IMG/VR virus record: IMGVR_UViG_3300025102_000043
Location: 1-52,698 of that record
Reading direction: 5' to 3' (one strand)
Length of the DNA stretch: 52,698 nucleotides
From: a virus
Lineage: Duplodnaviria > Caudoviricetes
Part shown: positions 10,601 to 52,054 of the stretch, piece by piece
How positions within the stretch are numbered: position 1 is the stretch's first letter
How the letters are laid out: every line of letters begins with the position of its first letter
Position numbers and translations under genes: made by a program
The notes under the pieces: generated by a model
The model's input: only the letters and a program-made list of their open reading frames with translations
Database searches by the model: none
What the model was told of the DNA's origin: nothing

Positions 10601-11382
10601 AGGTCTATAGCCATGCCATGCAGATGATATGAATGCGAATGCCCACCAACTTTATTATTTAAATCTTCATCTCTAAAGGCACTCTCTATATTTAGTGGGA
10701 CATGATTTTCCCAAACACTACCTAATTCTTCAATAGCTGTGTTTACAGCTGGATTAACTAAATTGTTTGTTAAAGTTGGATTAAAGTTTATATTTTTATT
10801 TTCAGTAGTTATAGGTACAAGACTTTCTTTTTCTACAGATTTTGTTGGGTTACTAGAATCTATTTCATTTTTAGTAATAATATCATTATCTCTAGATTCC
10901 TCTTCTTCTGGTGCTTGAGACTCTTTATAGTTCTCTATGTTTTCAACTAATAAATTTGTTAACTCATCATCATTGTTGATAGTAACATTTATTTCACCAC
11001 TAACTACAGAATCTAGAAACTCTTCTTTATTTACTTGACTTATTAAAGTTTGTCTTGATACTGTGGCTCCATTGACTGTGTATAATGGAACATTACCCTC
11101 TGAAGAGTCCAAACCACCAGTTTCCCCATCTGACGTAATATCTTCCCCATCCAAATTTTCTTCTGATTGGTCTTTTTTTTTTAAGCCATAAGTTTCTTTT
11201 ATGGTGTTCAGTTTATCATCATCTAGCTGAGCTCCACCATATTTGGAGTACAGGTCTTTAAGTAATCCATCAATATCATCTCCATAGGTTTGTTTTATAG
11301 AGTTTATCTTATTTTGGTCAAGTTTTTCATTAGTATACTTACCATAAAAATCTACCAATAATGAGTCTAAATCTTCATTCAT
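1630..11382 (-). CDS. Giant multi-domain virion/ejection protein with peptidase M15 and zincin-like domains
   Basis: 3250 aa, last gene of the ejection block; SAFRD..LN..VGG..HSYHLHGMAIDL...HVHVQF (M15); FHESAHPF...EEAMAE (HExxH); long helical regions. Confidence 0.8.
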   Translation of the reverse strand: MNEDLDSLLVDFYGKYTNEKLDQNKINSIKQTYGDDIDGLLKDLYSKYGGAQLDDDKLNTIKETYGLKKKDQSEENLDGEDITSDGETGGLDSSEGNVPLYTVNGATVSRQTLISQVNKEEFLDSVVSGEINVTINNDDELTNLLVENIENYKESQAPEEEESRDNDIITKNEIDSSNPTKSVEKESLVPITTENKNINFNPTLTNNLVNPAVNTAIEELGSVWENHVPLNIESAFRDEDLNNKVGGHSHSYHLHGMAIDLTGPSSKEFLNWVNNTAEGKKWANKWTEGAGGGPGIIIEDEGGPREHVHVQFKRNLGNRQSIEDTIHGEFHNHEHLDPEFNPPSTKEELINDLENRGRFALSTNKIDNGFDITDLLYKSHAGKESNIPNLKLSDISHLLDEDEKRLLNHYIKGSEDFKGNPTKYLFMPVSSMKKGEYWKQWWGDVRHPNDKKTYFNIIQKVEEKINQYLTSGWEHLGNSEYKHTETGVVISPDMTGGANPLLASSSALPELINQMQSDPNFLKDINSDGIAENFNGGLINQLYEKFNLDNSTFLKGEIESISNEDKKQIKKSEYDLKAGQFTLELFDNLSKSMEGSKSMSEINRKTEQIGEEIILAEQWLKEQLALINDFPTLAHGPLDTRGMKQSDLNRYNKLVSDFNNFRNTKYAELILKRENHLKGDNNVLLLDKLINGYNSSLNYLMSTTDEPVYKKRQDKLLKRRNASQKAYNESTWLGKGLRNISSVTLGTLGNFVESISSIPQQAKGIFSYENEYDMTDKIAGVTSEFITKNMEEAGTSWLYKPTSLTNSESMGNVYYANVEDGTIIFDSNNEIKNIITKDNYVINPESDRYANIIKEYENNKESYPTQKKKEWGGSFYNLAHATTDFILDMTIAKRVGGGTKKLTNSARAGKFGFYAGLYGATNIRMYNMYYAEGIRQGMLPGDASDMASQASLVSSVIEIATPDFGMINPSVKRMATNKALDAISDRVGKDVVDAAIKRGIVNSVFSKKALKYGVIEGGEELAQGAAVDLIKDQWWNKYEFDTKFNVNDALEEFTIGAIIGSGATAVTDVSSSFNKEYIKSGMYKDGMYHAYTNQEDTFKAIDNQIGKEVMVGGKLKTFTKNDAKKLKDGLKNKFKTMENLIGKTSLSDLSKRELLNLVEYKQNAEGLQGSLNKDVQEEVKKRIEQSDKAINRILKNEDPVKVMYDLSSSIDFEVREYVGNFMDISRLGIGTKALIRRITKGDSLTESQQKDSLDAIKRRITTLDAQENLNQEQKSELALLKKLEKDVTNIKTIKDEKIITRGRGKTRGASRGTKGTSIREDITEADTEQDRTTLNQNIGKPVSYKGKQGILDKNKNGEFVLKTPGRGKGIKIKDAGTGRKRLSTVGLKYEGKKVSVDSSGQLNIDGKDTGNILGFSKNDTGSLNSIITLDNQYSEEIKNKAIKKFNSLQKQRNQGKITTQQFNEAVSKTKGLTLQSNNSIKFGAAAGKITNDILSAGNADVISMKDVEQMIEEAIDELGYETEQNQQKEQDKKPVDKKKKSKKEIKQQKRVINPLFDSVTDNNIDSLIDEYSKYEGEVYDRKVKVLKIVKKLYNSLGFNVTIHKDEASLREFFASNGVNLSEIGRAIISEEGIDGGTPEIHINLDIANPNTMFHESAHPFITSLIKMSKTNPEIKKVLDGIKKDLESIEGGKYMKFAKLGYAKGKGGALLRDTDVKDKDISNPDKVLEEAMAEFLADAGLKKFDENQSTLNKAKSYIQSIIKYLLGVDTNAPLNLTLNDLSEITNLDDVTKIFTQATSRGLNINEKKRGKSTGEMKSQYNIDDQFKSHKENGGSTYNNFFGNVSGPYAMVGIFPELGKIVKGGDVTKKELEEYRAANQELLDMDNHVAVGTWYDSESNQTYLDISVAIPIEMIEEAKQLGREYNQKAIFNLQTFEDVSTGGTGETVAQGDATINERIQTIKDLIGQPDVKNQRVVTLGGSGFSSLNTSIKFSDITHGTPKQWLKELKKYGGSNLSQEIKFMGIKDFLDSVERSYPDGIPKVALEDYISMHQTSMQFSGNTMSVILGNETLADVDYEVVSNDVGEKVLFIKNIKAPNSKMMSNIAPVVRNIISFASTENYNGIAFESGDAFKGPRAEFFDSVIPEVVNDIMQSIDSKAGPVLSEVGGQAKTTIEITSPVVSVVEDMLNPSKDTEYQDGFNNNAKTIYSTEYKNQLGGQWLKGTSDFFSDFSFRRELLPMGNIPKKVFDMEWRYKSKIKAEKFKLLKLVDRMRSAIEENQKSNNPIPLRVINDVLSDPTVKIQELESEIKNYEYDLENLDRDGKTYAAGAVIDRIREVEEQIKSLKENHVGKATMKDLESAPELQKLIKQVRRKVDSLSRKLKDVVADKLGVVLDKNMGIYINRQYRIHNDQGYKKKMLKAINALIKAKADPKKIEKVVKRYGKEADLIQSSYEFIRKTLANKYKKKYKNENEITEEQILLDIKRMFSDGPESSDFMKAVNRANDVNTGVFKQREDLPDAISNLFSEAKNPLFNIVSTLTKQTSELEALEFKANAVAAMEGSLVYREDNLPPELSDTHRYPVTLKFSDAVYYTTKEVKEFIDGEVYNPTGAYRIAQVMNGAIKLGKTVYSLKTHVRNFLGNMYFASINGHFSYSDMKESFNVMQNLFDKSTTQEREQMFATMIENGIIDSVYADELQDIMRDGDLGIAMTELFDSGMDMDKVKKRKPGLLKKINTLVNKAYLWEDVIWKGAGFISEVDLFQRAGYERTEAIKMAADNVRGGYTTYSLVPKVGKRIRRMLLVGDFISFPAEVLRTGIGSLKVANKMIRSGNPVLQRSGYKRLFGTVFAWSTLPHLYTGIAALFASAIGMLKDFTDDDDEGLADNPLMDYALMNEEQRDIDKEFTLYDSYSDWFDNNHGGVDFNELKMDDITRDKMIQLFLPSYMKYGDVKLVSAQLGDEGYFDGTYYVWNSSDNMSNNVITRVINAIINTPEDDPTFDKIIKNDVINSMLETFFSPSMMFQILEDLSKREKQSGGKLDDTTDDWFDRLGNSITHVVSESMPGIGDQIYDMMESWQPELFLDEDEMDRKKSPVHETMSMTGFRFSRFNLQENLNFKVRDVSNTLKKLDPEGDGPKKIKREVERQMNYLDKLYTYSEALGIEERGVTVKDRNKERVLSELGNRDSVISMHIQGFSDGNMIYNFLNRDKRVYKNFNEWMEAQKKFTYADLLKSWQQEELSKERDPNIFEKVKEIIN

Positions 11383-14505: not shown

Positions 14506-17500
14506 TTATTTATTACTAAGTTCACTGTTAATTGTATTTGCATTTACAGCAAACATGTTCATCTTATCTTTAGTTCTTTTTGTTAAGGTTGTGTCCATAT
14601 AGTGACCCTTTAATCTATCTCCTTCTATAGTAGAATTTCTTTTTACAAACATAAAAGTATTTGCTAAAGTAGCTGTAGCATTAGAAGCTAATGTAATCAT
14701 TCTATCTTCATCAATAGTATCTATTACCCCAATTAGTGTTTCAGTTCCAATATTATCATAATAAATTAAATCACCAACACTAATTCCTGCAGTCGTAAAT
14801 GTTGTGTTAGTTGTTGTTCCTTGAACCACTCCACCAACAAGAGCAGACCATGTGGTGCTTCCAAAAATCTCTTCATTACCATTGTTTGAAGAAACATGAC
14901 CTAAACCAATATATTCTCCACCTGATGTATTTGTTTCTCCAAATGGAATATTAGAAGATAAAATTTCCTCTCTTTCTACCCAATTACCTGGAAATAAATT
15001 TCCAGCCTCATCATTTCTATAAGACAGCCTGTGAGTTAAACTAGTTGTATTTATATTTGTTTCTAGTTTAGTTTCGTAAGCTGTATTATCAGCAGATATT
15101 ACAAATAAATTATTAAGTGCAGCTCCAGAAGCTGTTGAACTAGCTGTAATAAAAGCATTAACTTCACCAATAGATGTATTCATATTGGTTCCATTTGTTA
15201 TTGCAGTTATAACCCCAAGAGTTATGAGTGTTCCTTCATCATTATAAAATACAGAGTCTCCAACCATAAAATCATTGTTCTGGAAATCTGTATTAACCCC
15301 AACTAAAGTAGCACTACCAGAAGTTGCTGTAACAGTTGCAGGCTCACCATTTGAATTAGTAGATATTATAGGAATAGATTCTTTTTTAGAAGAACCTTCT
15401 ATTGATAAAACATTCCATGTTTTAACTGTAGAAACATCATTGTTAAATGGAGTAGATATTACAGATTCTTCAGGGTATGGGTTATCATAAAACATATTAT
15501 GATTATCAGGGTCTGAATCATGTTTATATAAGTCTCCATTTTTAAAGCTTATAAAAACTCTATTTAAAGTTCCATAATATTCAGGGTAGAATGTATAAAA
15601 ACTAGTCCACCTATTAGAACTTTCATTAAATGCTAATGTTTGTGGTGATGATGTTAACACATATTCTCTTCCATTGATTTGTTGCTCAGGTCTATCATCC
15701 TCTTCTGGAGTAAACTTATCAATGTCTCTTATTTTTGTTTTAACAGAACGTGTAGCTTTTCTATTTTCAAAGTTTACAGATTCTGCATTAAAATTATTAT
15801 TATTAGTATTAAAGAATGCCATTCTTTGTGGTTTGGTTGTGCTCTTTTCTGTACTATATATACCTGGGAAAGTTACTAAGTAATCACCATGCCTCCTATC
15901 ATACCCACCTAATATAAATAAACCCCCACCTAATTTTTCTTGATACTCAGAAAGTAGTATAGATTGATACTGGTCCATTTTATCTCTAAAGAAATCTTTC
16001 ATTTTATAATCAGACACAACTGTTAATCCATTGCCACCTAATCTTAAAACAGCTCCTTTTCTTATGTCTGTAAAGTATATAGTTTTTTCATGAACAGCTA
16101 CTGACTCTGGGTTTAAAGAAACGCCAAAGTCTCCACCAAAAGGAGTAGCAGTTTGAGGTAAAACATTATTAGATAAAGATATTCCCTCATCTCCTGATGG
16201 TGACGTTATTATAGATTTACTTACTAAAACTTCAGATATTTTCTTCTCTTGCATTAATACTAAATTAGTATCTCTGTTAACAAGTTTTTGAATAGAACCT
16301 AAAGATAGGTCATAGTCCATATATGGTCTTTGGCTAAAATTAAAAGAGTGTAATCCATTATATTGTGTATCTGGTTGGAATACATCAGAGTAAGTTAAAG
16401 TAGCTTCTCTTCTTTGTTCTTTTGCAAAAGTAGAATAAACGTGTGGTCTACCAATGTTACAATGATTAGTTTGCATAAAGTCATTTAAAAAGTAACTTTC
16501 ATATTGTTGACTTCCTAAGATTGCTACATTACCATCTTGGTCTAGTGATGTAAAAAACCTACTTTTCCACCAAACGTCTCCCCTTTTAAATATTCCTTCT
16601 GCAGGGGTGCTTAATGTTTTTTCATTAACATATACTTGACCTTGATTAGCCAAACCTCCCATATGAAATCTATTATCTGCACCAGGGTTTCCTATAAGGT
16701 GTCTTTCGCTAAATTCATGATAAAGAGTTAATTCTTCATTTAAATTTTTCTTAGGTCTATATATTTCAACTATAACTTTATGCCAGTTAGGTAAAACCCC
16801 ATCGCTATTTGCAGTTGATTTATCAAAGTCTGCTATATTTGGGTCAGCTATAATAATAAACTTACCTTCAATAGCGTCTTGAGTTGCGTTTCCACCAACA
16901 GGAGAATCTGAAACCTTTTTTGTTTCATCCATATTTGTCCCCCCTAATTCAAACCTTCCAGGAAAATGCCCAACATCACTAATTTTTAAATCAAAATATT
17001 TTTCAAATAAAGCATTAGCAAAATTAGCACCTTTAGTTATTAGTCTAACTCTATCTCCCTCAGCAAAGCTCCAGTCTCCAATTAAAGATTTATCTTTCTC
17101 ACTATAACTCCAATCTCTACCATCCATGGTATTTAAAGATATATAAAGTTTAGTGTCTGCTTCAGCTTCAGCTTGGGTTGTCCCAGCTTTTTTCCCCATA
17201 TTTATATATGCGTTATCAACAATAAATTGCATATACTTACCAACAGAAGTATTTCTCGCATACGCCCAATGATAATACTTAGCCCATATTGGTGGCTTAT
17301 GAAATATTTTCCAATATATACTTCCTGGATTTAATTTCTCTGGGTCAGTTAAAAGCTCTGTAGATATAGCACTAGGGTTGGTTGTAAGGAATTGTCCAGT
17401 AACTGGACCCATAGCATATTTTTTTTCATTTGGAAAATCTACATAGCATGATGAGTTTCTATCATATGTTGAATCACTAGAGTCTAAAGTGTTTAACATA

Positions 17501-20484
17501 ACAGTAGAGCTTCTTCCCTTTTCATCATAATAAACTAAACCAAATCTATGCCAAGCACCTACTTTAAAAGATGCTTTATCAGCAGCTAATTGTAGGGTGT
17601 TAGCATTGCTAATATTTACGTTTGTTTGTTCTTCCCAGTTATCAACATCTAAGTTTACAGCACCTTTAGCACCATCCCAAGAATTGTTTCCATTATATTG
17701 AACAGTGGATTGGTTACTCCTATATTTTCTACCAGAACCACCCCCTAAAGTGGAAACACCAAATTTATCGCCAGGAGCATCAACAGCAGAAAAATTTGTA
17801 CAGTTAGATAAACCACCTGCATCACTAACGTCTGCATGGTCTCCTTCATCTCCAGCACCATCTACATTTATCCATGAGTGTAAATTAGTAGTAGCTCCTC
17901 CAGGATGATTATGATATGGGGGTTGTATTGAAGAACCAAAAGGGTAATAGTAAGTATCTTTTTGCCTTTTGTCTGGGCATTCATCATCTGGGTATGGGTT
18001 ATTATTTCCATCACCATCATCTTGAACCTCTTGACCATAAGGAACCCACTCCATAAATAGAGCATTATTTGTACCATAACTAGTGTCTTCTTTATATATT
18101 TTTGCTAACCTCATTATAGCAGCTCCTTGTCTTTGATTACCTGTCCAGTCATAGGTATGCGTCTCAGTTCCTGAATTAACCATAAAGGTTGTATATACTT
18201 TACCTGGATTAGGACCATCTTTATGATATGGATTAAAAAACTCATGAGGCTCTCCATTTTCATAAAACTCTTGTGTGGTTCCTCTGTCATCATCTAATCC
18301 AGCACCACTAGGGTCTTGACTAAAGTTAGCCATCTTTTTTATATCTGTTATAAACTCATCAATAAGACCACCAACTCCACCACTAGAAACTTGCCTTGTT
18401 AAATCAAATTGAAAACCAAAATATTTAAAGTTTTTTGAAGTGTCTTGACCTGTATCATAATCTTGAAATGGATATCTAATTTTTATTCCTCTATTCAAAC
18501 CAGTCATGTTGGTGTTTCTTAAATAACTTTGATACCTTTCTCTATGTTGCATCTTTAATCTAAAAGCTTGACCTGACTCAACTATAGTTGGAAACTCTAT
18601 TCTAACAATACTTCTAGCTCCATTAGCATCTAATCCAAAAACTCTCCTACCCTTGCCAGCACTTATTCCATCACCTTCATCTGCATATTCAGTTGTTGCT
18701 CCAAGAGCTGTTGAACTTCCTGAAGGGTATGCGTATGCAACTGCATCTCTTTCATGCATAGCTGTATCTCCCACAACACCATATAAATATGTTGAACTTG
18801 TTCCTCTCCAGGGGCTAAAGTCACCTTCGTTTTGAATACCACCTCCTTCTAGTTCTATATTTTCACTATCACCCTCCCAGGAACCCTCTTCCATCTCCAC
18901 ATAGCTAAGAACATTGTCTACAACATTACCAAGAGCACTACCATCTTTTATAAAAACAGGAGATAAGTGAAAGTGTGGATTAACTTGGTCAAATCCATCT
19001 ATATAGTTTCCATATATAATTCTATTCTCATTTGCTATTTCTTGAGCCTTAGCTCTTTTAGGAACTTGGTCAAACAATTTGTCAAAAGCTATAGGGTCTA
19101 CTTGAGAGTAAACACCATCATTTCTAAAATCAATGTAACCAGATGGCATTTCAGAACGAACAACTGAAGAGCCATTTGCTGCCATAGACCTAATGTATGG
19201 TATGTTAACATTTGAAACAGAAGTCCATCCATATTGTGCGTCTGCAACAGAACTTCCATTTGAGTCAACAGTAATGCTATCAATATATCCAGCCTCTAGT
19301 GATGGGTCATAGGTAGCGTCATAGTAATTATTGTCTACTGTTGCTACTAAATAATATTCCCCTTTATTACCTTCATCTGGAGAGGTTTCTATATATGAAC
19401 ATTTTCTTGCTACAATTTCTATTTTATCAACATCAGAGGGTCCATTGTGATACCAAACTCTAATTTGATTATATGGATTCTGTTTCCCCTCATCTACTTT
19501 ATTTGTATAATATTGAGGTGCAGGAAGAACATAGCTCCATTCTGAATATGCACTTGTCTCGTTGTTTTTATAAATATATCTATAAGCAAATTGCCAAACA
19601 TGACCAAATAGATTATTTTTCTTATAAGCAAAATCAAAGTTTGCGTGAGCCTGTACAGACAATATACCTGCATTAGCAAATGTTATTCCACCAGCTGGTA
19701 CAGATTCAGAGGGTAAAGAAACTTCTTGAGCGTCTGTTAAAGTATTTGTATTTTGAGTTGATGAGGATATATTTCTTATTGGTGTTTGATGAAAGTATAT
19801 AGGGGGGTGTGGTCTATCTTTACATACATCAATGTATTTTAATTTATCTGTATAAGGTACATTTGCATTAACTCCATTATTATCACCACTAGCAGAATAA
19901 AACTCAAATGGGTACATTGTTTCTAAATTAAATGCAGTTGTTGGATTTACAGAATATGCACCACTATCGTAATACACAGCCCACCCAGCTTTAGCCATTT
20001 CTACATTTATATATTTAGGCTCATTATGTTTTTCTTCTCTTATTGGTGATACATAAGAATTATCACTAGTCCAATATAATAAATCACCTATTTTATTAAT
20101 ACCTGTTATTAAAGTATTTTCATCAAATCTAAGAACATTATTTGTTACATCACCACTATCTCTAAATACTGTTGAAACAACATCTGTGTTTATATTATAC
20201 TCAAGTATAGTATGATAAGCCCTTGTGTTAAATAAAAAATAATATATACAACTTTTAGGACTATCTTCATAGGAACCAATAACTTTGTAATCTAATTCTG
20301 TTCTAGGCATAAGTTGAGGAGATGCCTCTTTAACCATCCCTCTAACATTCTCTAGTAACTGAGAACTTCTATTTTCTGAGGATATTATTCGCACATTTTG
20401 AGCGTAGAAATAATCTCCATTAGGGTTTACCCTGGAATCATCATCTCTATTAAGTCCACCTTGAAAGTTCCTTTTGTCTTGCAT
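14506..20484 (-). CDS. Tail muzzle/stabilisation protein (P22 gp10-like, crAss-like type) with large insertions
   Basis: N-terminal F.GGLN.DDD...Y.YAQNVR; LYWTSD..EPKYIN; QFAYRY; RIIYGNY; FGLVYYDEKGRS; GSIQKL; YFTD..KGAVLRL; directly after the ring genes. Confidence 0.8.
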   Translation of the reverse strand: MQDKRNFQGGLNRDDDSRVNPNGDYFYAQNVRIISSENRSSQLLENVRGMVKEASPQLMPRTELDYKVIGSYEDSPKSCIYYFLFNTRAYHTILEYNINTDVVSTVFRDSGDVTNNVLRFDENTLITGINKIGDLLYWTSDNSYVSPIREEKHNEPKYINVEMAKAGWAVYYDSGAYSVNPTTAFNLETMYPFEFYSASGDNNGVNANVPYTDKLKYIDVCKDRPHPPIYFHQTPIRNISSSTQNTNTLTDAQEVSLPSESVPAGGITFANAGILSVQAHANFDFAYKKNNLFGHVWQFAYRYIYKNNETSAYSEWSYVLPAPQYYTNKVDEGKQNPYNQIRVWYHNGPSDVDKIEIVARKCSYIETSPDEGNKGEYYLVATVDNNYYDATYDPSLEAGYIDSITVDSNGSSVADAQYGWTSVSNVNIPYIRSMAANGSSVVRSEMPSGYIDFRNDGVYSQVDPIAFDKLFDQVPKRAKAQEIANENRIIYGNYIDGFDQVNPHFHLSPVFIKDGSALGNVVDNVLSYVEMEEGSWEGDSENIELEGGGIQNEGDFSPWRGTSSTYLYGVVGDTAMHERDAVAYAYPSGSSTALGATTEYADEGDGISAGKGRRVFGLDANGARSIVRIEFPTIVESGQAFRLKMQHRERYQSYLRNTNMTGLNRGIKIRYPFQDYDTGQDTSKNFKYFGFQFDLTRQVSSGGVGGLIDEFITDIKKMANFSQDPSGAGLDDDRGTTQEFYENGEPHEFFNPYHKDGPNPGKVYTTFMVNSGTETHTYDWTGNQRQGAAIMRLAKIYKEDTSYGTNNALFMEWVPYGQEVQDDGDGNNNPYPDDECPDKRQKDTYYYPFGSSIQPPYHNHPGGATTNLHSWINVDGAGDEGDHADVSDAGGLSNCTNFSAVDAPGDKFGVSTLGGGSGRKYRSNQSTVQYNGNNSWDGAKGAVNLDVDNWEEQTNVNISNANTLQLAADKASFKVGAWHRFGLVYYDEKGRSSTVMLNTLDSSDSTYDRNSSCYVDFPNEKKYAMGPVTGQFLTTNPSAISTELLTDPEKLNPGSIYWKIFHKPPIWAKYYHWAYARNTSVGKYMQFIVDNAYINMGKKAGTTQAEAEADTKLYISLNTMDGRDWSYSEKDKSLIGDWSFAEGDRVRLITKGANFANALFEKYFDLKISDVGHFPGRFELGGTNMDETKKVSDSPVGGNATQDAIEGKFIIIADPNIADFDKSTANSDGVLPNWHKVIVEIYRPKKNLNEELTLYHEFSERHLIGNPGADNRFHMGGLANQGQVYVNEKTLSTPAEGIFKRGDVWWKSRFFTSLDQDGNVAILGSQQYESYFLNDFMQTNHCNIGRPHVYSTFAKEQRREATLTYSDVFQPDTQYNGLHSFNFSQRPYMDYDLSLGSIQKLVNRDTNLVLMQEKKISEVLVSKSIITSPSGDEGISLSNNVLPQTATPFGGDFGVSLNPESVAVHEKTIYFTDIRKGAVLRLGGNGLTVVSDYKMKDFFRDKMDQYQSILLSEYQEKLGGGLFILGGYDRRHGDYLVTFPGIYSTEKSTTKPQRMAFFNTNNNNFNAESVNFENRKATRSVKTKIRDIDKFTPEEDDRPEQQINGREYVLTSSPQTLAFNESSNRWTSFYTFYPEYYGTLNRVFISFKNGDLYKHDSDPDNHNMFYDNPYPEESVISTPFNNDVSTVKTWNVLSIEGSSKKESIPIISTNSNGEPATVTATSGSATLVGVNTDFQNNDFMVGDSVFYNDEGTLITLGVITAITNGTNMNTSIGEVNAFITASSTASGAALNNLFVISADNTAYETKLETNINTTSLTHRLSYRNDEAGNLFPGNWVEREEILSSNIPFGETNTSGGEYIGLGHVSSNNGNEEIFGSTTWSALVGGVVQGTTTNTTFTTAGISVGDLIYYDNIGTETLIGVIDTIDEDRMITLASNATATLANTFMFVKRNSTIEGDRLKGHYMDTTLTKRTKDKMNMFAVNANTINSELSNK

Positions 20485-32360: not shown

Positions 32361-32645
32361 TTATCTTTTTGCAAATTTCTCAGCTAAACCTTTTTCAAAG
32401 TCTTTTTCTTGTTTAAACTCTCCTTGAGCAATTTGTTCTTCTAACTTAGATATACCTATAAGTATTTCTTGTGCGTCTAAAAAACATTCTTTTTTTGCCT
32501 TAATAGCATTTCTTCTTTTCTCATCAGATAAATCAGGGTCTAATGGAGTTCTTATATCTTCTATAAGTATAGCCACAGCTTCTTTTGATGAGTCTATAAG
32601 GTCTTGTAGGGTTCTTTGTACGTATGATTTATTACTTTCCTTCAT
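32361..32645 (-). CDS. Small helical protein, candidate terminase small subunit
   Basis: 94 aa immediately upstream of terL; positional inference only. Confidence 0.45.
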   Translation of the reverse strand: MKESNKSYVQRTLQDLIDSSKEAVAILIEDIRTPLDPDLSDEKRRNAIKAKKECFLDAQEILIGISKLEEQIAQGEFKQEKDFEKGLAEKFAKR

Positions 32646-33282
32646 TGTTATATAACGCTAATATGTCTTCGTTTCTCATTCTTAACATTTTTTTACCTTC
32701 TATAGTCATCTCATATTCAGAGTTTTCTGAAAAAATAACCTCATCTCCAACATTAACCCCTTGTTCTTTTAACCAACTGTTCATATGTAACACGCTTCCA
32801 TGAAGGGTTATATCTTCTACTTCAGGTTTTATAAATATACCTGATTTAGTTTTTATGCTATCTTCGTCTTCTGTTTTTTGTTCAATAAAATTCCAATGAT
32901 GTAACATTTTTAATTTTCCTTTTCTAACTCTAGCATACATCTGTTGCCAATGAACCTTATATATATTTTCTTTATCTATCCATGTTACTAGATTTTCACT
33001 TTTAAGGTCTTGAGATGATTCATTAGCAAACTGTTGGTCTACAGTAACTGCACCAACAGAGCCTGTTATATGATGGTGAAAATAAACTTTATCACCTTTC
33101 TTAACATCAAAATCTAAACCTTCTGGTAACCAATCTGGATTTTCGTAAACAATACCATATTGTCTAGCAAACGTATATGGGTCCCATTTTACGTCTAATG
33201 AAATTTCTAAACCATTTAATTCTACAGTGTCTTCGTAAGGTTTTTCTACCTCTACCAAGAAATAATTTTTTGGTATCTTCAT
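32632..33282 (-). CDS. Tandem GroES-like co-chaperonin
   Basis: Two units: ...VKKGDKVYFHH and TKSGIFI...VNVGDEVIFS...IEGKKMLRMRNEDIL. Confidence 0.8.
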   Translation of the reverse strand: MKIPKNYFLVEVEKPYEDTVELNGLEISLDVKWDPYTFARQYGIVYENPDWLPEGLDFDVKKGDKVYFHHHITGSVGAVTVDQQFANESSQDLKSENLVTWIDKENIYKVHWQQMYARVRKGKLKMLHHWNFIEQKTEDEDSIKTKSGIFIKPEVEDITLHGSVLHMNSWLKEQGVNVGDEVIFSENSEYEMTIEGKKMLRMRNEDILALYNNEGK

Positions 33283-45206: not shown

Positions 45207-46235
45207 ATGAAAAGAATAATAATACTGTTACTAATGGTAAACATTTGTGCACAAGCACAAATCCAAGATTTTTTTAAATACTCAACTGTATATACATCAA
45301 TGACAATGAACACATCTTTTATTGAAAGAGATGATTATATAGCTGTGCAAAAAGGATATGAGGATGTAACACAAGTTAATCCTTATGATTATAATTTAAC
45401 AATAGGTTTAAGAAAAATAGCAAGATTTGATTATGAGTACAAGGTTAAGACATGGTATTATGGCACTGAAAAAGGTGTTGCAGACAATGTTACTATTGGT
45501 AACGCTGTTGGTTGGGAGTATTTATTTAATTATTCATTTATACGTAATCGTGGGGATAAGTATACTGAACAAAATTACTGGATTAGATACTTGGGAAATT
45601 GGTGTGTTACCAAAGTCCAATACAAAGACAATCAAAGAGTAGATTTAAGATATAACTCTTTTGATACTAGATTTAGATTAGCTAAAGGTAATTGGGATTT
45701 AACTTTAGGTGGTGTATTTAGAATGCATAACCCATATGGAATTAGCCCTATAGAAGATTTTTGGACACCAGGAGAACAGTCTTTTAAACAACTAGCTGAA
45801 TCCTTTGGTTATAGTACAGAGTTTGTTAATGGTGATTGGCACTGGTTTAACGATGGAGAGTTAATAGCTACATCTGATGACGAGTTCTATAAACATTATT
45901 TTGGAAATGCAGTTGCATCATATAATGAAAGAGAATTAGAAAAACTTGGTATGCAAAAACAGTTGAGTGCTGTCATAGGTGTAGCATATTATAAGTATAC
46001 AGATAGAATGTGGTTACATACGTGGATTAATTGTATGCCTTTTCATTATGGTTTAGATGATTATTCTTTTGAATATGGTATAGAAGATTATGATAATATA
46101 GAGTGGGACGCTGGTATTGTTCTTGGTTCTCGTATAACTAAGCATTTAGGTTTATTTATAGAAGGAACACACATGCGTTATTGGATGAAACCAGTATATG
46201 AAGTGAAGTTTGGTTTTAATTATTTAATATTTTAA
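45207..46235 (+). CDS. Probable outer-membrane beta-barrel protein
   Basis: Signal peptide AQA|Q; aromatic-rich amphipathic strands; C-terminal YEVKFGFNYLIF with terminal Phe. Confidence 0.7.
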   Translation: MKRIIILLLMVNICAQAQIQDFFKYSTVYTSMTMNTSFIERDDYIAVQKGYEDVTQVNPYDYNLTIGLRKIARFDYEYKVKTWYYGTEKGVADNVTIGNAVGWEYLFNYSFIRNRGDKYTEQNYWIRYLGNWCVTKVQYKDNQRVDLRYNSFDTRFRLAKGNWDLTLGGVFRMHNPYGISPIEDFWTPGEQSFKQLAESFGYSTEFVNGDWHWFNDGELIATSDDEFYKHYFGNAVASYNERELEKLGMQKQLSAVIGVAYYKYTDRMWLHTWINCMPFHYGLDDYSFEYGIEDYDNIEWDAGIVLGSRITKHLGLFIEGTHMRYWMKPVYEVKFGFNYLIF

Positions 46236-46237
46236 TT

Positions 46238-46882
46238 ATGAGAAAAAGTATTTTTATTTTATTTGTATTGTTAAGTTGGTTTTGTAAAGGTCAGGGTTAT
46301 GATTTTCAACAATTATGTTTAGACTGTGCCACTCAGGGTGGTTATTATTGTGGAGACGACCCAGCTAATTGGACTCAATATGCTCCTGATGGATGTGTTC
46401 AGACAGCATGGTTAAATGATTCATGGGAAGATTGTGTAGACGCAGGTGATGAGAATGGAGCTGTTCCAACTACTCCATTAGATTGTGCTCCTGATGAAAT
46501 TCCTTGCGATACTATTTTTGTAGATATTCCTGTAATTGAATATGAATACATATACGAAACAGACACAATTATTCAAATTGAAACAGTAATAGAAGTAGAA
46601 TATACGTATATTACAGATACAGTAACAGTTTATGAAGATGTATTAGACACTATGTTTATAGATGTTATAGAATATGTTGAGATATTTGTTATTGATACAA
46701 TAGTAGAATTTGAAACAGAATATTTAGATTGTGAAACAGGTATGCCATGTAATACTTCTATTCCTGAAATATTAGAAAAATCAGAAAATGATGGTCGTAT
46801 GTATAACATTCTAGGTCAACCAATACAAAGACCAGAAAGTATATACATACACGATGGTAAACTTAAATACATATTAAACTAA
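46238..46882 (+). CDS. Secreted Cys-rich protein with LDLa-like motif and T9SS CTD-like tail
   Basis: Signal peptide CKG|Q; CVQTAWLNDSWEDCVDAGDE; DT[IVM] repeats; C-terminal YNILGQPIQRPESIYIHDGK. Confidence 0.65.
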   Translation: MRKSIFILFVLLSWFCKGQGYDFQQLCLDCATQGGYYCGDDPANWTQYAPDGCVQTAWLNDSWEDCVDAGDENGAVPTTPLDCAPDEIPCDTIFVDIPVIEYEYIYETDTIIQIETVIEVEYTYITDTVTVYEDVLDTMFIDVIEYVEIFVIDTIVEFETEYLDCETGMPCNTSIPEILEKSENDGRMYNILGQPIQRPESIYIHDGKLKYILN

Positions 46883-47241
46883 TGTATACTTATAAAGCAA
46901 AGTTAGATAGAGTTGTTGATGGAGATACTATAGATGTAAATATAGACCTAGGTTTTGATATATCAGTTCATAAGAGAGTTAGATTAGCAGGTATAGATAC
47001 TCCTGAGAGTAGAACTAGAGACTTAGAGGAAAAAAAACGTGGCTTAGCTGCTAAGGATAGATTAATAGAAATACTTGATAAAGGTGATTTACAGGTAGAA
47101 AGTAAAGAGGTTGGTAAATATGGTAGAGTTTTAGGTGTATTAACTATATATCCTGACAATCTAGGTTTACCAATTAATGTTAACGACACATTGGTGAGTG
47201 AAGGTCATGCAGTTGAGTATAATGGTGGTAAAAAGAAATAA
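46882..47241 (+). CDS. Thermonuclease (SNase-like) protein
   Basis: RVVDGDTID...RVRLAGIDTPE...GKYGRVLG...LVSEGHAV.Y. Confidence 0.9.
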   Translation: MYTYKAKLDRVVDGDTIDVNIDLGFDISVHKRVRLAGIDTPESRTRDLEEKKRGLAAKDRLIEILDKGDLQVESKEVGKYGRVLGVLTIYPDNLGLPINVNDTLVSEGHAVEYNGGKKK

Positions 47242-47243
47242 TT

Positions 47244-47465
47244 ATGAATATATTTAGAAATGATAATAATTGGAATGAGAAAGCTATAATAGGTTTTGTA
47301 GCATTTCTTATTATGTGTTTAATAATGGTTGCTGATTTAGTAACAGGATGGGTTGGAAAAGACCTCATCATCAATAAATTCGTTTACGACAGTTTTGTTT
47401 GGGTTGTGCTTGGATGTTTTGGAATCAGTGGTGTAGAAAAATTTGCAGGTAATGGCAAAAAGTAG
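47244..47465 (+). CDS. Two-TM small membrane protein, holin-like
   Basis: Two hydrophobic segments and a basic C-terminus. Confidence 0.6.
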   Translation: MNIFRNDNNWNEKAIIGFVAFLIMCLIMVADLVTGWVGKDLIINKFVYDSFVWVVLGCFGISGVEKFAGNGKK

Positions 47466-49965
47466 AAAGTATATATCTAAAAAAAGAACCAGAAAGTTTT
47501 TCCTTGGTGGTTTAATGAAAAAAATGGCTAGTGCCAATCCATTGGCAATGGGTATTAAAGCTTTAAGAAAGAAAAAAGATGGTGGAGAAGGAGCTGAGGG
47601 GGAAGAGGTTTCTCAAAATAACGATGGAAAAATATTAAAAGTAAAAGTTCTAGGAGAAGGTGGTGGAGAGAATAAGTCTCAACTCTCAAAAGAGGCAAAG
47701 AAAGCTAAAATGGACGCTATGGCAGGTTCTTTAGGAGGAATGTCTAAACCTGGTTTTAATATAGGAATAATGAGAAAAGGTGGTGTTGTTAAAAAATCAT
47801 CAAATAAAGATAAGGATAGAAAATTTGTAATTTTAAACACCCAAGAAGAGATAGATAAAATAAATAAAGATGCAGCAGGCTTCCTGCCAGGAAAAAAAAC
47901 AAATCTTCCTGGATTTGATAAATATAATGCAAGAACTCATAAAAAAAAGAAAAAATACAAGGATGGTGGTAAAGTTTCTGATGCAAGTGATGTTAATTTA
48001 CATAGCAATAAAGGAAATACTGATGAGGGAGCTAAACTAAAGAAAGAAGAAGAAAAAAGAAAAATCCAAGAAAACGACTCTGAAAAACTTAAAAATCTTG
48101 GTAAATCCACAATTAGAGATGAGGCTATTGTTAGAGGAGGACAAGCGTTAGCTAGAAGAGCAGGAGCTACTGGAGTTAATAGGGCTTTAGGTGCTTTTGG
48201 ACCTATAGGAGCTATGGCTGGAATTAGTTACGCTATGTATGATAATTATGATGAAGCTCATGAACAAGCTTTTGGTCCTAAATTAAGAGACTTAGAAAAA
48301 ACCCATGGAAAAGAAACAAGAAAAAAGGTAGAGCAAACAACTCACACTTTTGGTGGACATGGAGCTACAGGATTTGGTCAAGGTTATAAATCAAAAATGG
48401 AAAAAGGTGGTATTATGAAAAAAAGAAAACATGTAAATAGCAATGTTGGAAGAACATTAGAATATCAAATGCTTGATGGTGCAGGAGCACTTTATGATAA
48501 AAAGTCTACAGGAAAAGTTAAAAGACTTTTAAATGAGAAAGAAAAATCTCTATATAGACAAGCAGGTAGAAAACTGCCTAAGAAAAATATATTTAATGAA
48601 GGTGGGGAAGTTTTAAATGAAATGAACGATAAAGAGGGTTACAACCAATGGAAAACAGATAGGTCTACAAGAACTAGAACAAATATATCTCCTTTAGTTT
48701 CAAGAAAACAACATCTTAATAAACATTATGAAGATAATGTAGACCCAGACTCTAAGGGGGCAGATAGAAAAAGTGAATTTGTAGAAAGAAAAAACCAAGG
48801 AACTTGGAATCAAGGTTATGGTAATCAAGATTTGATGATAGAAGCTAAAGAGGGTAGAGGAGATATAAAAAGAAGAGGTTTAGCTAGAGGATTATTTAAT
48901 AGAAAAACTGAGAAAGGTCTTGTTAAGAAAAAATACGATGACGAACTATCTAAAGACAGTGAAGTTATATCAGGAGCTAGAGCATCTAAATTTGGTTTAG
49001 GAGACTATAAAGAAGAAAAGGCAGCTGGTAGAGAGCAGAGAAAATACATTACTTCAGGTGAAGATAGTGATGGAGACCCTATAAAAACAAAAATAAAAAC
49101 AAAGGGTATAAGAGGTAGAGATATACCAACTGAGATGAATAAGGAGAAAATGATTAATGAGAATGAGAGAAAGTTTGTTGATGTTGTAGATGGTAAAAGG
49201 GTAAAGAAAAGAGGCGCTACTGCAAGCACTGCTAGAGAGTATAAAAGAAGAGGTTTAAGGAGAGTTTATACTGACCCAGATGCTGAAGGAAATGTTCAAT
49301 ATGTAGGAACTGGTGAAAGGGCAACACGAAGAGCTGATAGAGAAAGTGGCAGGGATGAGAGAAACCAAAGAAGACAAGAAAATAAAGCAATTAGACAACA
49401 AAAACAACAAGATAGAAAAGCTACAAGAAAACAAAATAGACAAGATTTTAGACAGTCTTTTGGTGGTGACCCAGGAAGCTCTTATTCTTCTGGTTCTAAT
49501 TATGGTGATTACGAGGAAGGTGGAGTTGCATTTAACAAGCCTAAAAGAACCCCAAACCATCCAAAAAAATCACATATAGTAGTTGTTAGAAAACCAGGAG
49601 GTGGTAAGAAAACAATTAGATTTGGTCAACAAGGTGTGACCACTGCTGGTAAACCAAAAGAAGGTGAATCACAAAAACAAAAAAACAGAAGAAAATCTTT
49701 CAAGGCTAGGCATGGTAAAAATATAGCAAAAGGAAAAATGTCTGCAGCCTACTGGGCTAATAAAGTTAAATGGGAAGATGGTGGAGTAAACGCACCTAAA
49801 GGTCTTCACTGGATGAAGAAAGGAGAAGGAAAATACAAACTAATGAAGCATGGCGATAAGCCATTTAAGAAACATGCAGGTGCTAGTTTAAAAGCTAAGT
49901 TTCCTATTCAAAAGAAACACAATCCTAAACAAGACGCTAGAATGGCTAAAAGAAAATACGTGTAA
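47452..49965 (+). CDS. Basic modular protein with 7 [YFMW]xxGG motifs (probable virion cargo/polyprotein); start probably ATG 47452
   Basis: FFLGG, MRKGG, YKDGG, MEKGG, FNEGG, YEEGG, WEDGG; the last modules resemble stand-alone small phage proteins. Confidence 0.75.
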   Translation: MAKSRKYISKKRTRKFFLGGLMKKMASANPLAMGIKALRKKKDGGEGAEGEEVSQNNDGKILKVKVLGEGGGENKSQLSKEAKKAKMDAMAGSLGGMSKPGFNIGIMRKGGVVKKSSNKDKDRKFVILNTQEEIDKINKDAAGFLPGKKTNLPGFDKYNARTHKKKKKYKDGGKVSDASDVNLHSNKGNTDEGAKLKKEEEKRKIQENDSEKLKNLGKSTIRDEAIVRGGQALARRAGATGVNRALGAFGPIGAMAGISYAMYDNYDEAHEQAFGPKLRDLEKTHGKETRKKVEQTTHTFGGHGATGFGQGYKSKMEKGGIMKKRKHVNSNVGRTLEYQMLDGAGALYDKKSTGKVKRLLNEKEKSLYRQAGRKLPKKNIFNEGGEVLNEMNDKEGYNQWKTDRSTRTRTNISPLVSRKQHLNKHYEDNVDPDSKGADRKSEFVERKNQGTWNQGYGNQDLMIEAKEGRGDIKRRGLARGLFNRKTEKGLVKKKYDDELSKDSEVISGARASKFGLGDYKEEKAAGREQRKYITSGEDSDGDPIKTKIKTKGIRGRDIPTEMNKEKMINENERKFVDVVDGKRVKKRGATASTAREYKRRGLRRVYTDPDAEGNVQYVGTGERATRRADRESGRDERNQRRQENKAIRQQKQQDRKATRKQNRQDFRQSFGGDPGSSYSSGSNYGDYEEGGVAFNKPKRTPNHPKKSHIVVVRKPGGGKKTIRFGQQGVTTAGKPKEGESQKQKNRRKSFKARHGKNIAKGKMSAAYWANKVKWEDGGVNAPKGLHWMKKGEGKYKLMKHGDKPFKKHAGASLKAKFPIQKKHNPKQDARMAKRKYV

Positions 49966-50267
49966 TGACTATTAATTTTATACATACAAAAGGTGTTTTG
50001 GAGAACGCTTTTAGAAAAGATTCCTTTAGACATCTTGAAGTAATATACGCATCTGGAAGCACAGGTGCTATTAGTATTTATTTTGCTGCTGAAGGAGATA
50101 TAGTTGATATGGATAAAATAATTCTTACAGTTAACAAAGACTTCATGCATATTGTTGCAGACTCTATAAAAAAATCAATATCTTCTCCAGGAGACTCTGT
50201 TGTGGAGCTTGGAGCTAAAAAGGGTATTTTCAGACAAATGATTTCTCTGACTCACGTTCCTGGTTAA
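49965..50267 (+). CDS. Hypothetical protein, possible paralog of 24707..25066
   Basis: ISIYF...DKIILTV...H....SIKKSI versus MRVYF...VIVLTV...H....DIAKAL. Confidence 0.6.
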   Translation: MTINFIHTKGVLENAFRKDSFRHLEVIYASGSTGAISIYFAAEGDIVDMDKIILTVNKDFMHIVADSIKKSISSPGDSVVELGAKKGIFRQMISLTHVPG

Positions 50268-50335
50268 AATATAGATACCACATAGACACCTATCATTATT
50301 AGAACATATATTATTTTAGATACTTCTATTTTCAT
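50264..50335 (-). CDS. Possible 23-aa single-TM peptide
   Basis: MKIEVSKIIYVLIMIGVYVVSIF; preceded by TATATTACAG, a promoter-like variant; stop overlaps the convergent gene. Confidence 0.35.
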   Translation of the reverse strand: MKIEVSKIIYVLIMIGVYVVSIF

Positions 50336-50468
50336 GCTGTAATATACATTTCTAATGTTAATAGAATGTTAAGCTAATATTTTTTTTGTGTTAAAAATTT
50401 TTTTGAGAAATTTTGAGGGTGGGTATTATATACTATTATGCTAATCCAAATTTAGAACCCCAAGTGGA

Positions 50469-50476
50469 TATATTTG
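50469..50476 (+). promoter_or_regulatory. TATATTTG element with no downstream ORF
   Basis: Exact motif pointing into the boxes and the dif-like site. Confidence 0.4.
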
Positions 50477-50500
50477 ACCCCACCCCATTAACTACATAAC

Positions 50501-50651
50501 AGAATAAGCGTTCTGATTCATACATACTATATAATAGAATGGGCGCTCTACTAATACCTATTACCCTACTTAACATAATATATATTATAAGACAATCAAC
50601 ACCAAGCATTTAGAATGAGCGTTCTGCAAAACTATTAAGAACGATTGTTCT
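50501..50651. repeat. Four 14-bp quasi-palindromic AGAA-N6-TTCT boxes
   Basis: 50501 AGAATAAGCGTTCT; 50536 AGAATGGGCGCTCT; 50612 AGAATGAGCGTTCT; 50638 AGAACGATTGTTCT. Confidence 0.75.
50568..50595 (-). other. dif-like XerC/XerD recombination site (11-6-11)
   Basis: TTGTCTTATAA-TATATA-TTATGTTAAGT versus E. coli dif GGTGCGCATAA-TGTATA-TTATGTTAAAT; XerD arm 10/11, spacer 5/6. Confidence 0.75.
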
Positions 50652-50975
50652 AGTGAGTAGTAAACACAAATGGTGTAACACCTGTACACTTTATACCAAT
50701 TATCCCCAAATCAATTTGAAGGGCATTTTAAAGCCATCTAACAGACTTTCTATCTGTTCTGAATGTCTACCATTAAAAGTTTCTGTTTCTTTATTAGAAT
50801 CATTTCCCCTCTGTTAAGTTTCTTTACATTTATGATTGTTAATAGTATTGTTAATAACTTTGTTTATTAGCTATTGACTTTATCAATTTAATGCGTTACA
50901 ATCACGCACGTACATCACACGCATACGCATCACACGTACGCACGTTCCATTAGTAGTTTGTAACACCTATTCCTT

Positions 50976-50994
50976 ATTTAGAATCATTCTAAAT
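50976..50994. promoter_or_regulatory. Perfect 9-1-9 palindrome, Fur-box-like operator
   Basis: ATTTAGAAT-C-ATTCTAAAT. Confidence 0.65.
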
Positions 50995-51033
50995 TTCATT
51001 TTTTTTTCCTCGAGTCAGAGCATTTATTTCAAA

Positions 51034-51072
51034 TACCTTTGTCGAACGTATTGTAAAAAAACATTACATTTG
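51034..51072 (+). promoter_or_regulatory. Two tandem TAnnTTTG elements (early promoter)
   Basis: TACCTTTG at 51034-51041 and TACATTTG at 51065-51072, upstream of ardC; the first TTTG may serve as the -33 element of the second. Confidence 0.65.
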
Positions 51073-51124
51073 TGGTATGAGATTGACACAAGGTTAATCA
51101 TTAACACACACTAAACAAAACATT

Positions 51125-52054
51125 ATGAAAAAAGACGTTTATCAGATTATAACAGATGAAGTAATCAAGGGATTAGAAACTCAAGGTCTAACATGGTTCA
51201 AATCATGGGCAGGGAATACAGACACAATGTGTATCAGCCATACAACAGGTAAAATTTACAGAGGTATAAATCAGTTATTATTATCAATGGCAATGATGCA
51301 ATATGACTACTCAAGTAAAGAATTTATGACCTTTAATCAAGCCAAGAAACTAGGGGGAAAGGTCAAGAAAGGTAGCACATCACATATGGTAGTTAACTGG
51401 AGAGTAGCATACTTTGTAACAGATAGCAAAGGCAAGAGAATATATCTAAAGGGCAAAAGCTTAGAAGAGTTAGTAATTCCAAAGGGTTACACCATGAGCG
51501 ATGTTGACAAGTCAATGAGTGCAAGTTATTTCAGAGTATTTAATCTGGATTCTGTTGAGGGTATTCAGGACAAATGGAATATCGATGAAGTTATTGAAGG
51601 TAGTATATTTGAGCCTATCAATGAGGCTGAACAGGTATATACTAATATGAGGAAAAAACCTCAATTAATACACCAAGATAATGTTGGTTGTTTTTACAAG
51701 CCATCTAATCATATGATTAATATGAGTACTCAAGAGACATTTACTACTCCTGATGATTATTATAAAGTTTTATTCCATGAGTTGAATCATTCAACAGGTC
51801 ACGAATCTATACTAAATAGAAAAACTTTGAACTCTCCAAATCATAACAAGGTTGCATATAGTCAAGAGGAGTTAGTAGCTGAGTTAGGAGCTATGTTTCT
51901 AACTAATCTAACAGGTATTAAACCAAAGGGAGATGATAGAAATAGTCAAGCTTATATTAATGGTTGGATAAAGCATTTAAAAGACCACCCAAAAGAAATA
52001 ATTTTTGCGAGTAGTCAAGCTCAAAAATCAGTCGAGTTTATACTTAACAGATAA
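51125..52054 (+). CDS. ardC: ArdC-family antirestriction protein (ssDNA-binding domain plus zincin-like domain)
   Basis: VYQIITD.VI..LE...W.K.W...YRGIN...FMTFNQAKKLGGKVKKG...VFN; HELNHSTGH..ILNR...YSQEELVAELGAMFL...YINGW. Confidence 0.92.
   Translation: MKKDVYQIITDEVIKGLETQGLTWFKSWAGNTDTMCISHTTGKIYRGINQLLLSMAMMQYDYSSKEFMTFNQAKKLGGKVKKGSTSHMVVNWRVAYFVTDSKGKRIYLKGKSLEELVIPKGYTMSDVDKSMSASYFRVFNLDSVEGIQDKWNIDEVIEGSIFEPINEAEQVYTNMRKKPQLIHQDNVGCFYKPSNHMINMSTQETFTTPDDYYKVLFHELNHSTGHESILNRKTLNSPNHNKVAYSQEELVAELGAMFLTNLTGIKPKGDDRNSQAYINGWIKHLKDHPKEIIFASSQAQKSVEFILNR

Follow-up and report, generated by a model that had tools for sequence, protein, structure and literature searches.

A probable dif-type XerCD site in a tailed phage of marine Flavobacteriia with no recognised integrase

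This report concerns a 28-bp dif-like element in a stretch of viral DNA of 52,698 nucleotides (referred to as the window), which is the linear IMG/VR record IMGVR_UViG_3300025102_000043 and is about 85% complete. The genes of the window are arranged in a minus-strand block, with the terminase, the portal, virion proteins and two giant open reading frames (ORFs), and a plus-strand block that ends in a non-coding spacer and an ArdC-like anti-restriction gene (Table 1). An earlier examination of the letters alone (the sequence-only reading) had described this spacer as the only long non-coding region, and its 857 nt indeed compare with 309 nt for the next gap. The spacer carries the element, which judging from its sequence is very probably a genuine Xer site, that is, a site for XerC and XerD, two recombinases of the host (together XerCD).

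On the minus strand, positions 50568-50595 read TTGTCTTATAA-TATATA-TTATGTTAAGT (plus strand ACTTAACATAA TATATA TTATAAGACAA), an 11-6-11 layout in which the inner ATAA/TTAT motifs are combined with dissimilar outer arm halves, as in a dif-type core. The coordinates, sequence and architecture given by the sequence-only reading were exact. The 28-mer occurred only once in the window at up to three mismatches and in none of 100 dinucleotide-preserving shuffles of it, while the consensus pattern of host sites (see below) matched the window in one place, with one mismatch, and again in 0/100 shuffles. The score lay far above the AT-rich background (window G+C of 33%), whereas a score within that background was an outcome that the sequence-only reading had named as refuting. 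Its count of 10 out of 11 matching bases in the XerD arm held both against the Vibrio dif motif (ATTTAACATAA, complementary strand; PMC12715192) and against the Flavobacteriales arm TTATGTTAAAT, and the G variant found in the window also occurred in Bacteroidota chromosomal sites. For the XerC arm it had claimed only the inner ATAA, which does match but understates the case, as all 11 bases fit TTGTC[C/T]TATAA. The dinucleotide AG that follows the XerD arm was likewise found in all three phage lineages that carry the site (see below), in most viral sites and in many host sites (A in 19/25, G in 14/25).

Table 1. Features of the spacer and its borders, in window coordinates.
Feature	Position	Strand	Remarks
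100-aa ORF left of the spacer	49965..50267	+	no family; 40% identical homologue in L082
Non-coding spacer, 857 nt, from the 100-aa ORF to the first early gene	50268..51124		no Rfam family; promoter-like matches at chance level
Conserved left block (…GGGTGGGTATTATATAC…GACCCCACCCC)	50386..50486		aligned in all 12 spacers; borders the hypervariable stretch
Operator-like palindrome 1 (TAGAAYGnnYGTTCT type)	50500..50514
Operator-like palindrome 2	50535..50549
AG dinucleotide directly after the XerD arm	50566..50567	-	conserved after host sites and most viral sites
Dif-type 28-bp core (XerC arm, 6-bp centre, XerD arm)	50568..50595	-	27/28 to chromosomal sites of G001, G002 and G003
XerD-side arm TTATGTTAAGT	50568..50578	-	10/11 to host consensus TTATGTTAAAT
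Central hexamer TATATA	50579..50584		one of three host centres; variable among phage relatives
XerC-side arm TTGTCTTATAA	50585..50595	-	11/11 to Flavobacteriales consensus TTGTC[C/T]TATAA (25 host sites)
Operator-like palindrome 3	50611..50625		homologous copies in site-bearing and site-free relatives
Conserved right block (…CCAATTATCCCCAAATCAATTTGAAGGGC…)	50631..50760
Operator-like palindrome 4 (AGAACGATTGTTCT)	50637..50651
ArdC-like anti-restriction gene, first of the early block	51125..52054	+	Pfam ArdcN, MPTase-PolyVal; phrog_7245

The host dif sites used for comparison were derived from genomes. When one genome per species was first scanned for the inner core around a TATATA centre, at least 120 stretches were returned, and among the matches listed these fell into lineage types, with ACTTCCTATAA…TTATGTTAACT/CC in Bacilli and Mollicutes, and a variable XerC arm followed by TTATGTTAAAT or -GT, usually then AG, in Bacteroidota. 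Identity to the window at 27 of 28 positions was found in three records (G001, G002 and G003, which comprise a Flavobacteriales single-cell genome, a Flavobacteriales metagenome-assembled genome (MAG) and a Bacteroidetes MAG), each of which had exactly one match to the core irrespective of its centre. A core match was present in 76 of 201 Flavobacteriales genomes, as a single match in 73, and the centres of the 79 matches were mostly (65/79) TTTATA (37), TTAATA (24) or TATATA (4). The TATATA of the window was the centre in 4 of the 76 matching genomes, and may be that of the phage's own host. The three additional matches lay inside ORFs and had non-consensus arms, and were accordingly rejected as prophage sites. 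As the reversed pattern (the 15-base core alone) gave about 56 matches in the same 201 genomes, the core by itself is not rare in AT-rich host genomes, and true host sites are marked, on this sequence comparison, by their restricted centres together with their extended arms. The consensus of 25 host sites was TTGTC[C/T]TATAA T[T/A][A/T]ATA TTATGTTAAAT, followed mostly by AG.

These host sites behave as chromosomal dif. In two megabase contigs the GC skew changed sign at the site (from +0.129 to -0.095, and from +0.084 to -0.029), the site of G001 follows clpB, gyrA and a TPR gene (a housekeeping neighbourhood), and 17/17 genomes of the family of G001 had XerD-like genes, frequently alongside a second paralogue. 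Dif has also been predicted in 19/19 Bacteroidetes (Kono et al., PMC3025954). In several Flavobacteriales (loci L515, L516 and L517, from G001, G002 and G020) the chromosomal site came immediately downstream of a conserved gene of ~385 aa with TPR repeats, which in G001 comes after gyrA and which could be a landmark for dif and for junctions. The comparison with flavobacterial dif sites that the sequence-only reading had proposed also points to marine Flavobacteriales as the host, and its identification of the element as a dif-type XerCD site is strongly supported by the 27/28 identity to a single-copy chromosomal site in three Flavobacteriales/Bacteroidota genomes and by the agreement with the order consensus, AG included.

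Close relatives of the phage were collected via the ArdC gene in viral and metagenome contigs, and alignment of 12 spacers placed the dif-like site in a hypervariable stretch between two well-conserved blocks. The site was present in seven sequences from three lineages (the window and L391, which are identical; L084 and L401, with centre TATGTA; and L082, L393 and L394, with two tandem sites), in the same orientation throughout. In pairwise comparison across these three lineages, 19-21 of 22 arm positions and 4-5 of 6 centre positions agreed, compared with 6-9 of 30 positions in the 30-nt flanks, which is the random level. As far as these alignments go, the site is thus a conserved island whose flanks are unrelated, though its presence is facultative: the scan for positional conservation that the sequence-only reading had called for located it at the same spot in three of six lineages and found it missing from the other three. 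We count the conservation of the arms amid randomised flanks as support for selection, which would act on the arms. The centres of the sister lineages (TATGTA, TTTTTA, CTTTTA and TAAACA) depart from the host form on the XerD side, whereas the TATATA of the window is fully host-like.

The tandem sites are direct repeats with starts 37-38 bp apart (L082 5532-5596, L393 3017-3082 and L394 3580-3645), and in the upstream one the XerC arm is degenerate (TGTCCTGATAA) and TAAACA forms the centre. This arrangement looks like the footprint of past Xer events.

Similar sites recurred well beyond the close relatives. A scan of viral sequences with the pattern GTCYTATAA-N6-TTATGTTAA yielded at least 120 stretches, against 45 for a reversed control (complete scan). 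Among the matches listed, 90/120 fitted the host consensus at three or four of the four free positions, as did 33 of the 53 in contigs of at least 30 kb, and 29 of those 33 were intergenic; a further group of 33/120 with the same arms came from contigs of microvirus size (up to 10 kb). Three near-complete genomes, two with a terminase 54% identical to that of the window (G412, 95% complete, and G413, 100%) and one with a terminase 35% identical (G204, 96%), had one site each, and no Phage_integrase was found in these three or in G410 (95% complete). Sites of this kind are therefore found singly, and with no integrase, in near-complete phage genomes of 50-67 kb.

When the centres of 53 unique good viral sites were compared with those of host sites, the XerC-side half-centre was host-like in 33/53, whereas the host ATA on the XerD side was present in only 9/53 (2/30 in large contigs). 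For comparison, 401 Bacteroidota genomes were scanned with the 24-nt pattern used on the viruses; 15 of them had one match each, with ATA in 15/15, and the reversed control gave two matches. The difference in ATA between viral and host sites was significant (Fisher p = 3e-9), in a comparison that covers, on the viral side, the first 120 of at least that many matches, whatever the hosts of their contigs, and on the host side genomes with exactly these arms. Homology to the host on the XerC side only is the pattern of integrative mobile elements exploiting Xer (IMEX) of the VGJ type, in which it explains why XerD does not participate (as described in PMC5357621). By this measure the viral sites carry, as a class, the VGJ-type signature, namely divergence from host dif in the XerD-side half-centre.

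The window represents ~85% of a marine Flavobacteriia podophage of roughly 60 kb that is related to Elemovirus and the Pachyviridae, and the phage is present in marine metagenomes. Its terminase was 48% identical to that of an uncultured podovirus, 39% to that of Elemovirus, 34% to that of Cellulophaga phage phi46:3 (Pachyviridae) and 23-28% to those of crAss-like phages, so that the description crAss-related in the sequence-only reading applies at long range only and does not extend to close kinship. Homologues of the portal among isolates (30-36% identity) belonged almost exclusively to phages of Flavobacteriia (68 of Flavobacterium, 15 of Cellulophaga, two of Tenacibaculum and one of Maribacter), and no nucleotide similarity to phage isolates was found. 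Among the window and the contigs of four relatives, tyrosine or serine recombinases were sought as Pfam Phage_integrase (PF00589) and Resolvase (PF00239) and were found in 0/5 each. The earlier claim that the window has no integrase hence stands for these two families, and because the window is only about 85% complete it rests partly on the relatives. ParB_N was likewise found in 0/5, and no other partition function was recognised, ParA-type families not having been searched.

The early module and those for replication and lysis, all missing from the window, are present in the contig of one relative (G407). Behind ArdC it has early ORFs of small size, followed by genes for a PDDEXK exonuclease, a DnaA-C-like helix-turn-helix (HTH) protein, an initiator of replication, a primase-helicase, a resolvase-like protein and a holin. 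Beyond the holin, genes at the far side of the window have their homologues, so that phage DNA lies on both sides of the site. No polymerase was found among the 10 G407 ORFs scanned, which suggests replication by the host replisome. Relative to ArdC, the G407 block homologous to window positions 45207-47447 is inverted and has moved to another place, and the order of modules in this group of phages is therefore fluid.

Several further observations were made on the genes of the window. The two giant minus-strand ORFs encode 3250 aa (1630-11382) and 1992 aa (14506-20484); the sole match of the former was lysozyme-like, near residues 228-315, and its 3003-aa counterpart in G407 had no tblastn match to the window at 1e-5. 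The structural arm also includes a gene for a GroES-like co-chaperonin and an HNH endonuclease gene (32632-33282 and 365-817). Elsewhere, an 840-aa ORF (47443-49965) ends in a domain of ~80 aa (49470-49849, phrog_7595) that was 75-85% identical to at least 598 viral stretches and formed a depth spike in 4/4 metagenome runs, and is therefore a widely exchanged module. The 840-aa protein was consequently rejected as an anchor for finding relatives, as it recovered only this widely shared C-terminal domain.

The spacer itself contains a second set of repeated elements. The palindrome TAGAAYGnnYGTTCT matched the window 13 times versus 4.65 expected, a number reached in 0/100 shuffles, and four of these palindromes, each counted on both strands, flank the dif-like core within 50500-50652. 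Homologous palindromes also occurred in lineages without the dif-like site, and we therefore read them as a separate regulatory system of the early region. A form with another spacing, AGAAY-N5-GTTCT, was at chance level and was rejected, the N4 form being the correct one. Also rejected was a replication origin with DnaA boxes, of which 22 matches were found in the window versus 20.9 expected, one of them in the spacer. No Rfam family of structured RNA was found in the whole window, and sigma-70-type promoters and terminators were at chance level in a scan that does not cover Bacteroidota promoters.

The left conserved block consists of a T-run and GAGAAATTTTGAGGGTGGGTATTATATAC followed by GACCCCACCCC and is common to 12/12 relatives; its role might be that of an early promoter or of a signal for packaging or replication. 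Some contigs of metagenome run X1 have only 50375-50433 in common with the window and diverge on both sides. Closer to ArdC, a run of CACGCA/CGTACA-type repeats (CACGCACGTACATCACACGCATACGCATCACACGTACGCACG) occupies 50893-50945 of the window; repeats of similar kind occur in L084 (520-580) and are absent in L082, and one contig of run X7 omits 50889-50971 (81 nt), the repeat run therefore being length-polymorphic in nature. In run X5, a low-depth contig links the window end (52698), via 10 other letters, to position 50847, which suggests a second copy of the TTGTTAATA…-type element just past the window end.

Taking all functions together, the 28-bp site is probably a working XerCD substrate, a judgement made from sequence comparison. 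The reading that we place first, with a probability of roughly 0.4, is that it serves integration at host dif through XerCD, i.e. an integrase-free lysogeny of the IMEX type. What puts it there are the precedents known from the same hosts, the lack of an integrase and the VGJ-like centres seen across the wider class. The site would be a copy of the host's chromosome-dimer-resolution site, located in the regulatory spacer that precedes the early genes. The injected genome would first circularise, host XerC would bind the TTGTCTTATAA arm and host XerD the TTATGTTAAGT arm, and the phage site would be paired with chromosomal dif, so that strand exchange across the 6-bp centre could insert the phage at the replication terminus. 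As both arms and the centre of the window site match host dif, XerD- and XerC-mediated exchanges would both be possible, and integration would be reversible, probably in an FtsK-dependent way. The predicted outcome is not a locked prophage but lysogeny of a transient or unstable kind. Extended to the whole set of integrase-less tailed double-stranded DNA (dsDNA) phages of marine Bacteroidota, the window's included, the proposal becomes that they may be Xer exploiters for which a 28-bp dif mimic is the entire integration module, one that would allow lysogeny or persistence by way of host XerCD, and that most of them might use a VGJ-like exchange by XerC only, given the diverging XerD-side centres; in this wide form we regard it as tentative and rather doubtful.

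A number of observations weigh against integration at host dif. Contigs from 4/4 marine metagenome runs bridged the site from phage to phage with no differences (X1 50201-51693, X5 49729-50676, X6 50040-50934 and X7 49878-50781), and no loose contig end lay at the site among the 24 of 81 such ends listed, in assemblies that drop rare variants and of which X1 is possibly the source sample. The search for contigs joining phage to host DNA at this site, which the sequence-only reading had recommended, thus found none among the contigs of the four runs. Portal homologues were found in 3/401 Flavobacteriales genomes at 35-38% identity, and their four contigs had no dif-like site at up to one mismatch; the terminase was found in 0/17 genomes of G001's family, which holds two of the 27/28 matches. 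Among 153 host loci centred on dif-type matches (L221-L373) none matched a protein of the window or of G407, the sole host-locus matches being the four portal-bearing loci (L387-L390). A contig end of G412 beside its site was considered as a host junction and rejected, because phage DNA homologous to G413 continues across the site. Around the sites of G001 and G002 themselves, no sign change of the GC skew was seen in stretches of 20 kb and 15 kb. The site was absent at the homologous spot in 5/12 sequences (L398; L396, L397 and L399; L402), including L398 with its ArdC identity of 88%, and the cultured relatives elemoA, Panino, MW202828 and phi46:3 had no site at up to one mismatch. Neither a repressor nor a module for lysogeny could be recognised, and the XafT-like DUF3653 (PF12375), a factor of the TLC-phi IMEX subtype, was found in 0/5 of the window and relatives' contigs. 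Finally, a prophage between two fully functional dif sites should be readily excised by FtsK-activated XerCD, which makes stable lysogeny doubtful for the window site. In terms of what characterises an IMEX, the phage has a dif-like attP and no integrase of its own was found, and integration at host dif between two dif-like sites was seen nowhere in the samples that the 401 and 17 genomes, the 153 loci and the four runs represent. The two functions put forward by the sequence-only reading, integrase-free lysogeny and multimer resolution, are each proposed rather than observed: neither an integrated relative, nor a phage-host junction, nor a partition gene was found, and the site is absent in three of six lineages.

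A RadC-like gene with a JAB domain (41-46% identical) was observed near several dif-like sites (L321 961-1485, L194 8568-8978, L167 3788-4228, L189 and L132). L321 is a contig of a Polaribacter MAG that ends 55 nt past its site, and the other four belong to site-bearing phages; the gene was rejected as a phage-host link, since it is too frequent in mobile elements.

Instead of the chromosome, the partner of the site might be a second phage copy, with XerCD resolving or unlinking circular multimers and catenanes in a plasmid-like carrier state. This would agree with the single site per near-complete genome, with its position in a non-coding control region, as for plasmid resolution sites, and with the exclusively free configuration in the metagenomes. 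The G407 gene set (initiator, DnaA-C-like HTH protein, primase-helicase, RecE-type exonuclease, Holliday-junction resolvase-like protein, and no polymerase in the 10 ORFs scanned) also fits the replication of circles by the host replisome, with recombination creating multimers. We nevertheless hold this explanation to be unlikely, if a serious one. Lytic phages package concatemers, and resolution matters only if the genome persists through divisions, for which no partition function was recognised within the scope given above; a bare dif core on plasmids shows no preference for resolution over multimer formation and so favours neither direction, and the site is lacking in half of the close lineages. 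A non-host centre would speak for this explanation, in that it gives the phage a private site that avoids the chromosome, but this would leave a host-like XerC-side half with a drifting XerD side unexplained. The patchy presence, the hypervariable stretch with its lineage-specific flanks, the tandem sites of one lineage with their degenerate upstream XerC arm and the lack of the site in cultured relatives could alternatively mean that the element is a neutral remnant, a short cassette deposited when the phage once recombined with host dif or a small element bearing dif, and now without a role for the phage. A neutral 28-mer should decay like its flanks, yet the arms have kept their agreement between lineages; the flanks contain no host genes, the site recurs in many independent phage genomes and nearly always between genes, and the shift of the XerD-side centre is systematic and non-random, all of which makes a remnant quite unlikely.

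The arms are also shared by the contigs of microvirus size in the viral scan (33/120 among the matches listed), and insertion sequences that target dif have been described (PMC10132070). The site could thus be a landing pad for small Xer exploiters (microviruses, PhiCjT23-like single-stranded DNA (ssDNA) phages or such insertion sequences) that ride in the tailed phage, and the tandem sites of L082, L393 and L394 resemble the insertion and loss of such an element. As none of the seven site-bearing relatives has an inserted small element beside the site, and as a landing pad gives the phage no selective reason to keep the arms, we judge this improbable. Still further down stands an incidental resemblance to dif, in which the element would be an operator bound by a phage regulator, an element of a promoter or a product of chance in AT-rich DNA. 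It is true that the site lies among four operator-like palindromes in a regulatory spacer, in a window of 33% G+C, but the shuffles gave no match, promoter-like matches were at chance level, and the palindromes are kept in relatives that lack the site and hence belong to a separate system; the arms, dissimilar beyond the inner TTAT/ATAA, nonetheless each fit their host counterpart. We consider an incidental resemblance very improbable.

Should integration at host dif through XerCD prove right, a class of temperate marine phages would have been missed, and temperate or persistent lifestyles of ocean phages would be undercounted by prediction from integrases. In Bartlau et al. (PMC8776804), the lifestyles of flavophages were inferred from integrases, which occur in some environmental Pachyviridae, and Xer goes unmentioned in the accessible part of that source. 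IMEX biology would be extended to the Caudoviricetes, lysogeny could be gained or lost by a change of 28 bp, which fits the patchy distribution, and the dif arms with their centre would offer a sequence-level clue to the host. The claim is open to standard Xer assays.

Known exploiters of Xer include filamentous phages, double-jelly-roll phages, microviruses, PhiCjT23-like phages and genomic islands (PMC3091885, PMC9719478, PMC12715192, PMC5357621). No publication describing a dif-type site in a tailed phage was found in the literature searched, most subscription journals being outside its scope, and none is named in the accessible parts of PMC5357621 and PMC12715192. Compared with the chromosomal dif of Flavobacteriales, the phage site is identical at 27 of 28 positions including the trailing AG, but it lies between phage genes on both sides and not at a replication terminus. 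The VGJ-phi IMEX of Vibrio resembles the window phage in its single dif-like attP of 28-29 bp and its lack of an integrase, and the class of phage sites in being host-like on the XerC side only (PMC5357621); it differs in being a filamentous ssDNA phage of ~7 kb in Gammaproteobacteria that integrates as dsDNA at dif, whereas the window phage is a tailed dsDNA phage of ~60 kb in Flavobacteriia, of which no integrated copy is known and whose own centre is fully host-like and thus without the VGJ signature. Closer in host are the Bacteroidetes microvirus proviruses (BMV/Alpavirinae) and the PhiCjT23-like prophages of Flavobacterium, which share the host phylum or class and have dif motifs at their borders and no integrase (PMC3091885, PMC9719478); these are ssDNA elements of 4-8 kb found integrated, and the window phage is large, tailed and seen only free. 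The gonococcal genetic island, an IMEX of 57 kb with its difGGI site, is likewise a large element with a host-homologous XerC arm and centre, and it uses the FtsK/XerD-first pathway of dimer resolution (PMC5357621), but it is conjugative and is held integrated by a divergent XerD arm that does not stop FtsK, while the XerD arm of the window differs at one outer base. The plasmid cer/psi sites and the Cre/lox system of P1, itself a tailed phage and dependent on that system in its plasmid prophage state, keep a circular replicon monomeric by site-specific recombination (PMC5357621). The former depend on accessory proteins of the host as well as on an accessory sequence of ~180 bp, and P1 has its own recombinase and partition system, whereas in the window phage and four relatives neither a recombinase nor ParB was found.

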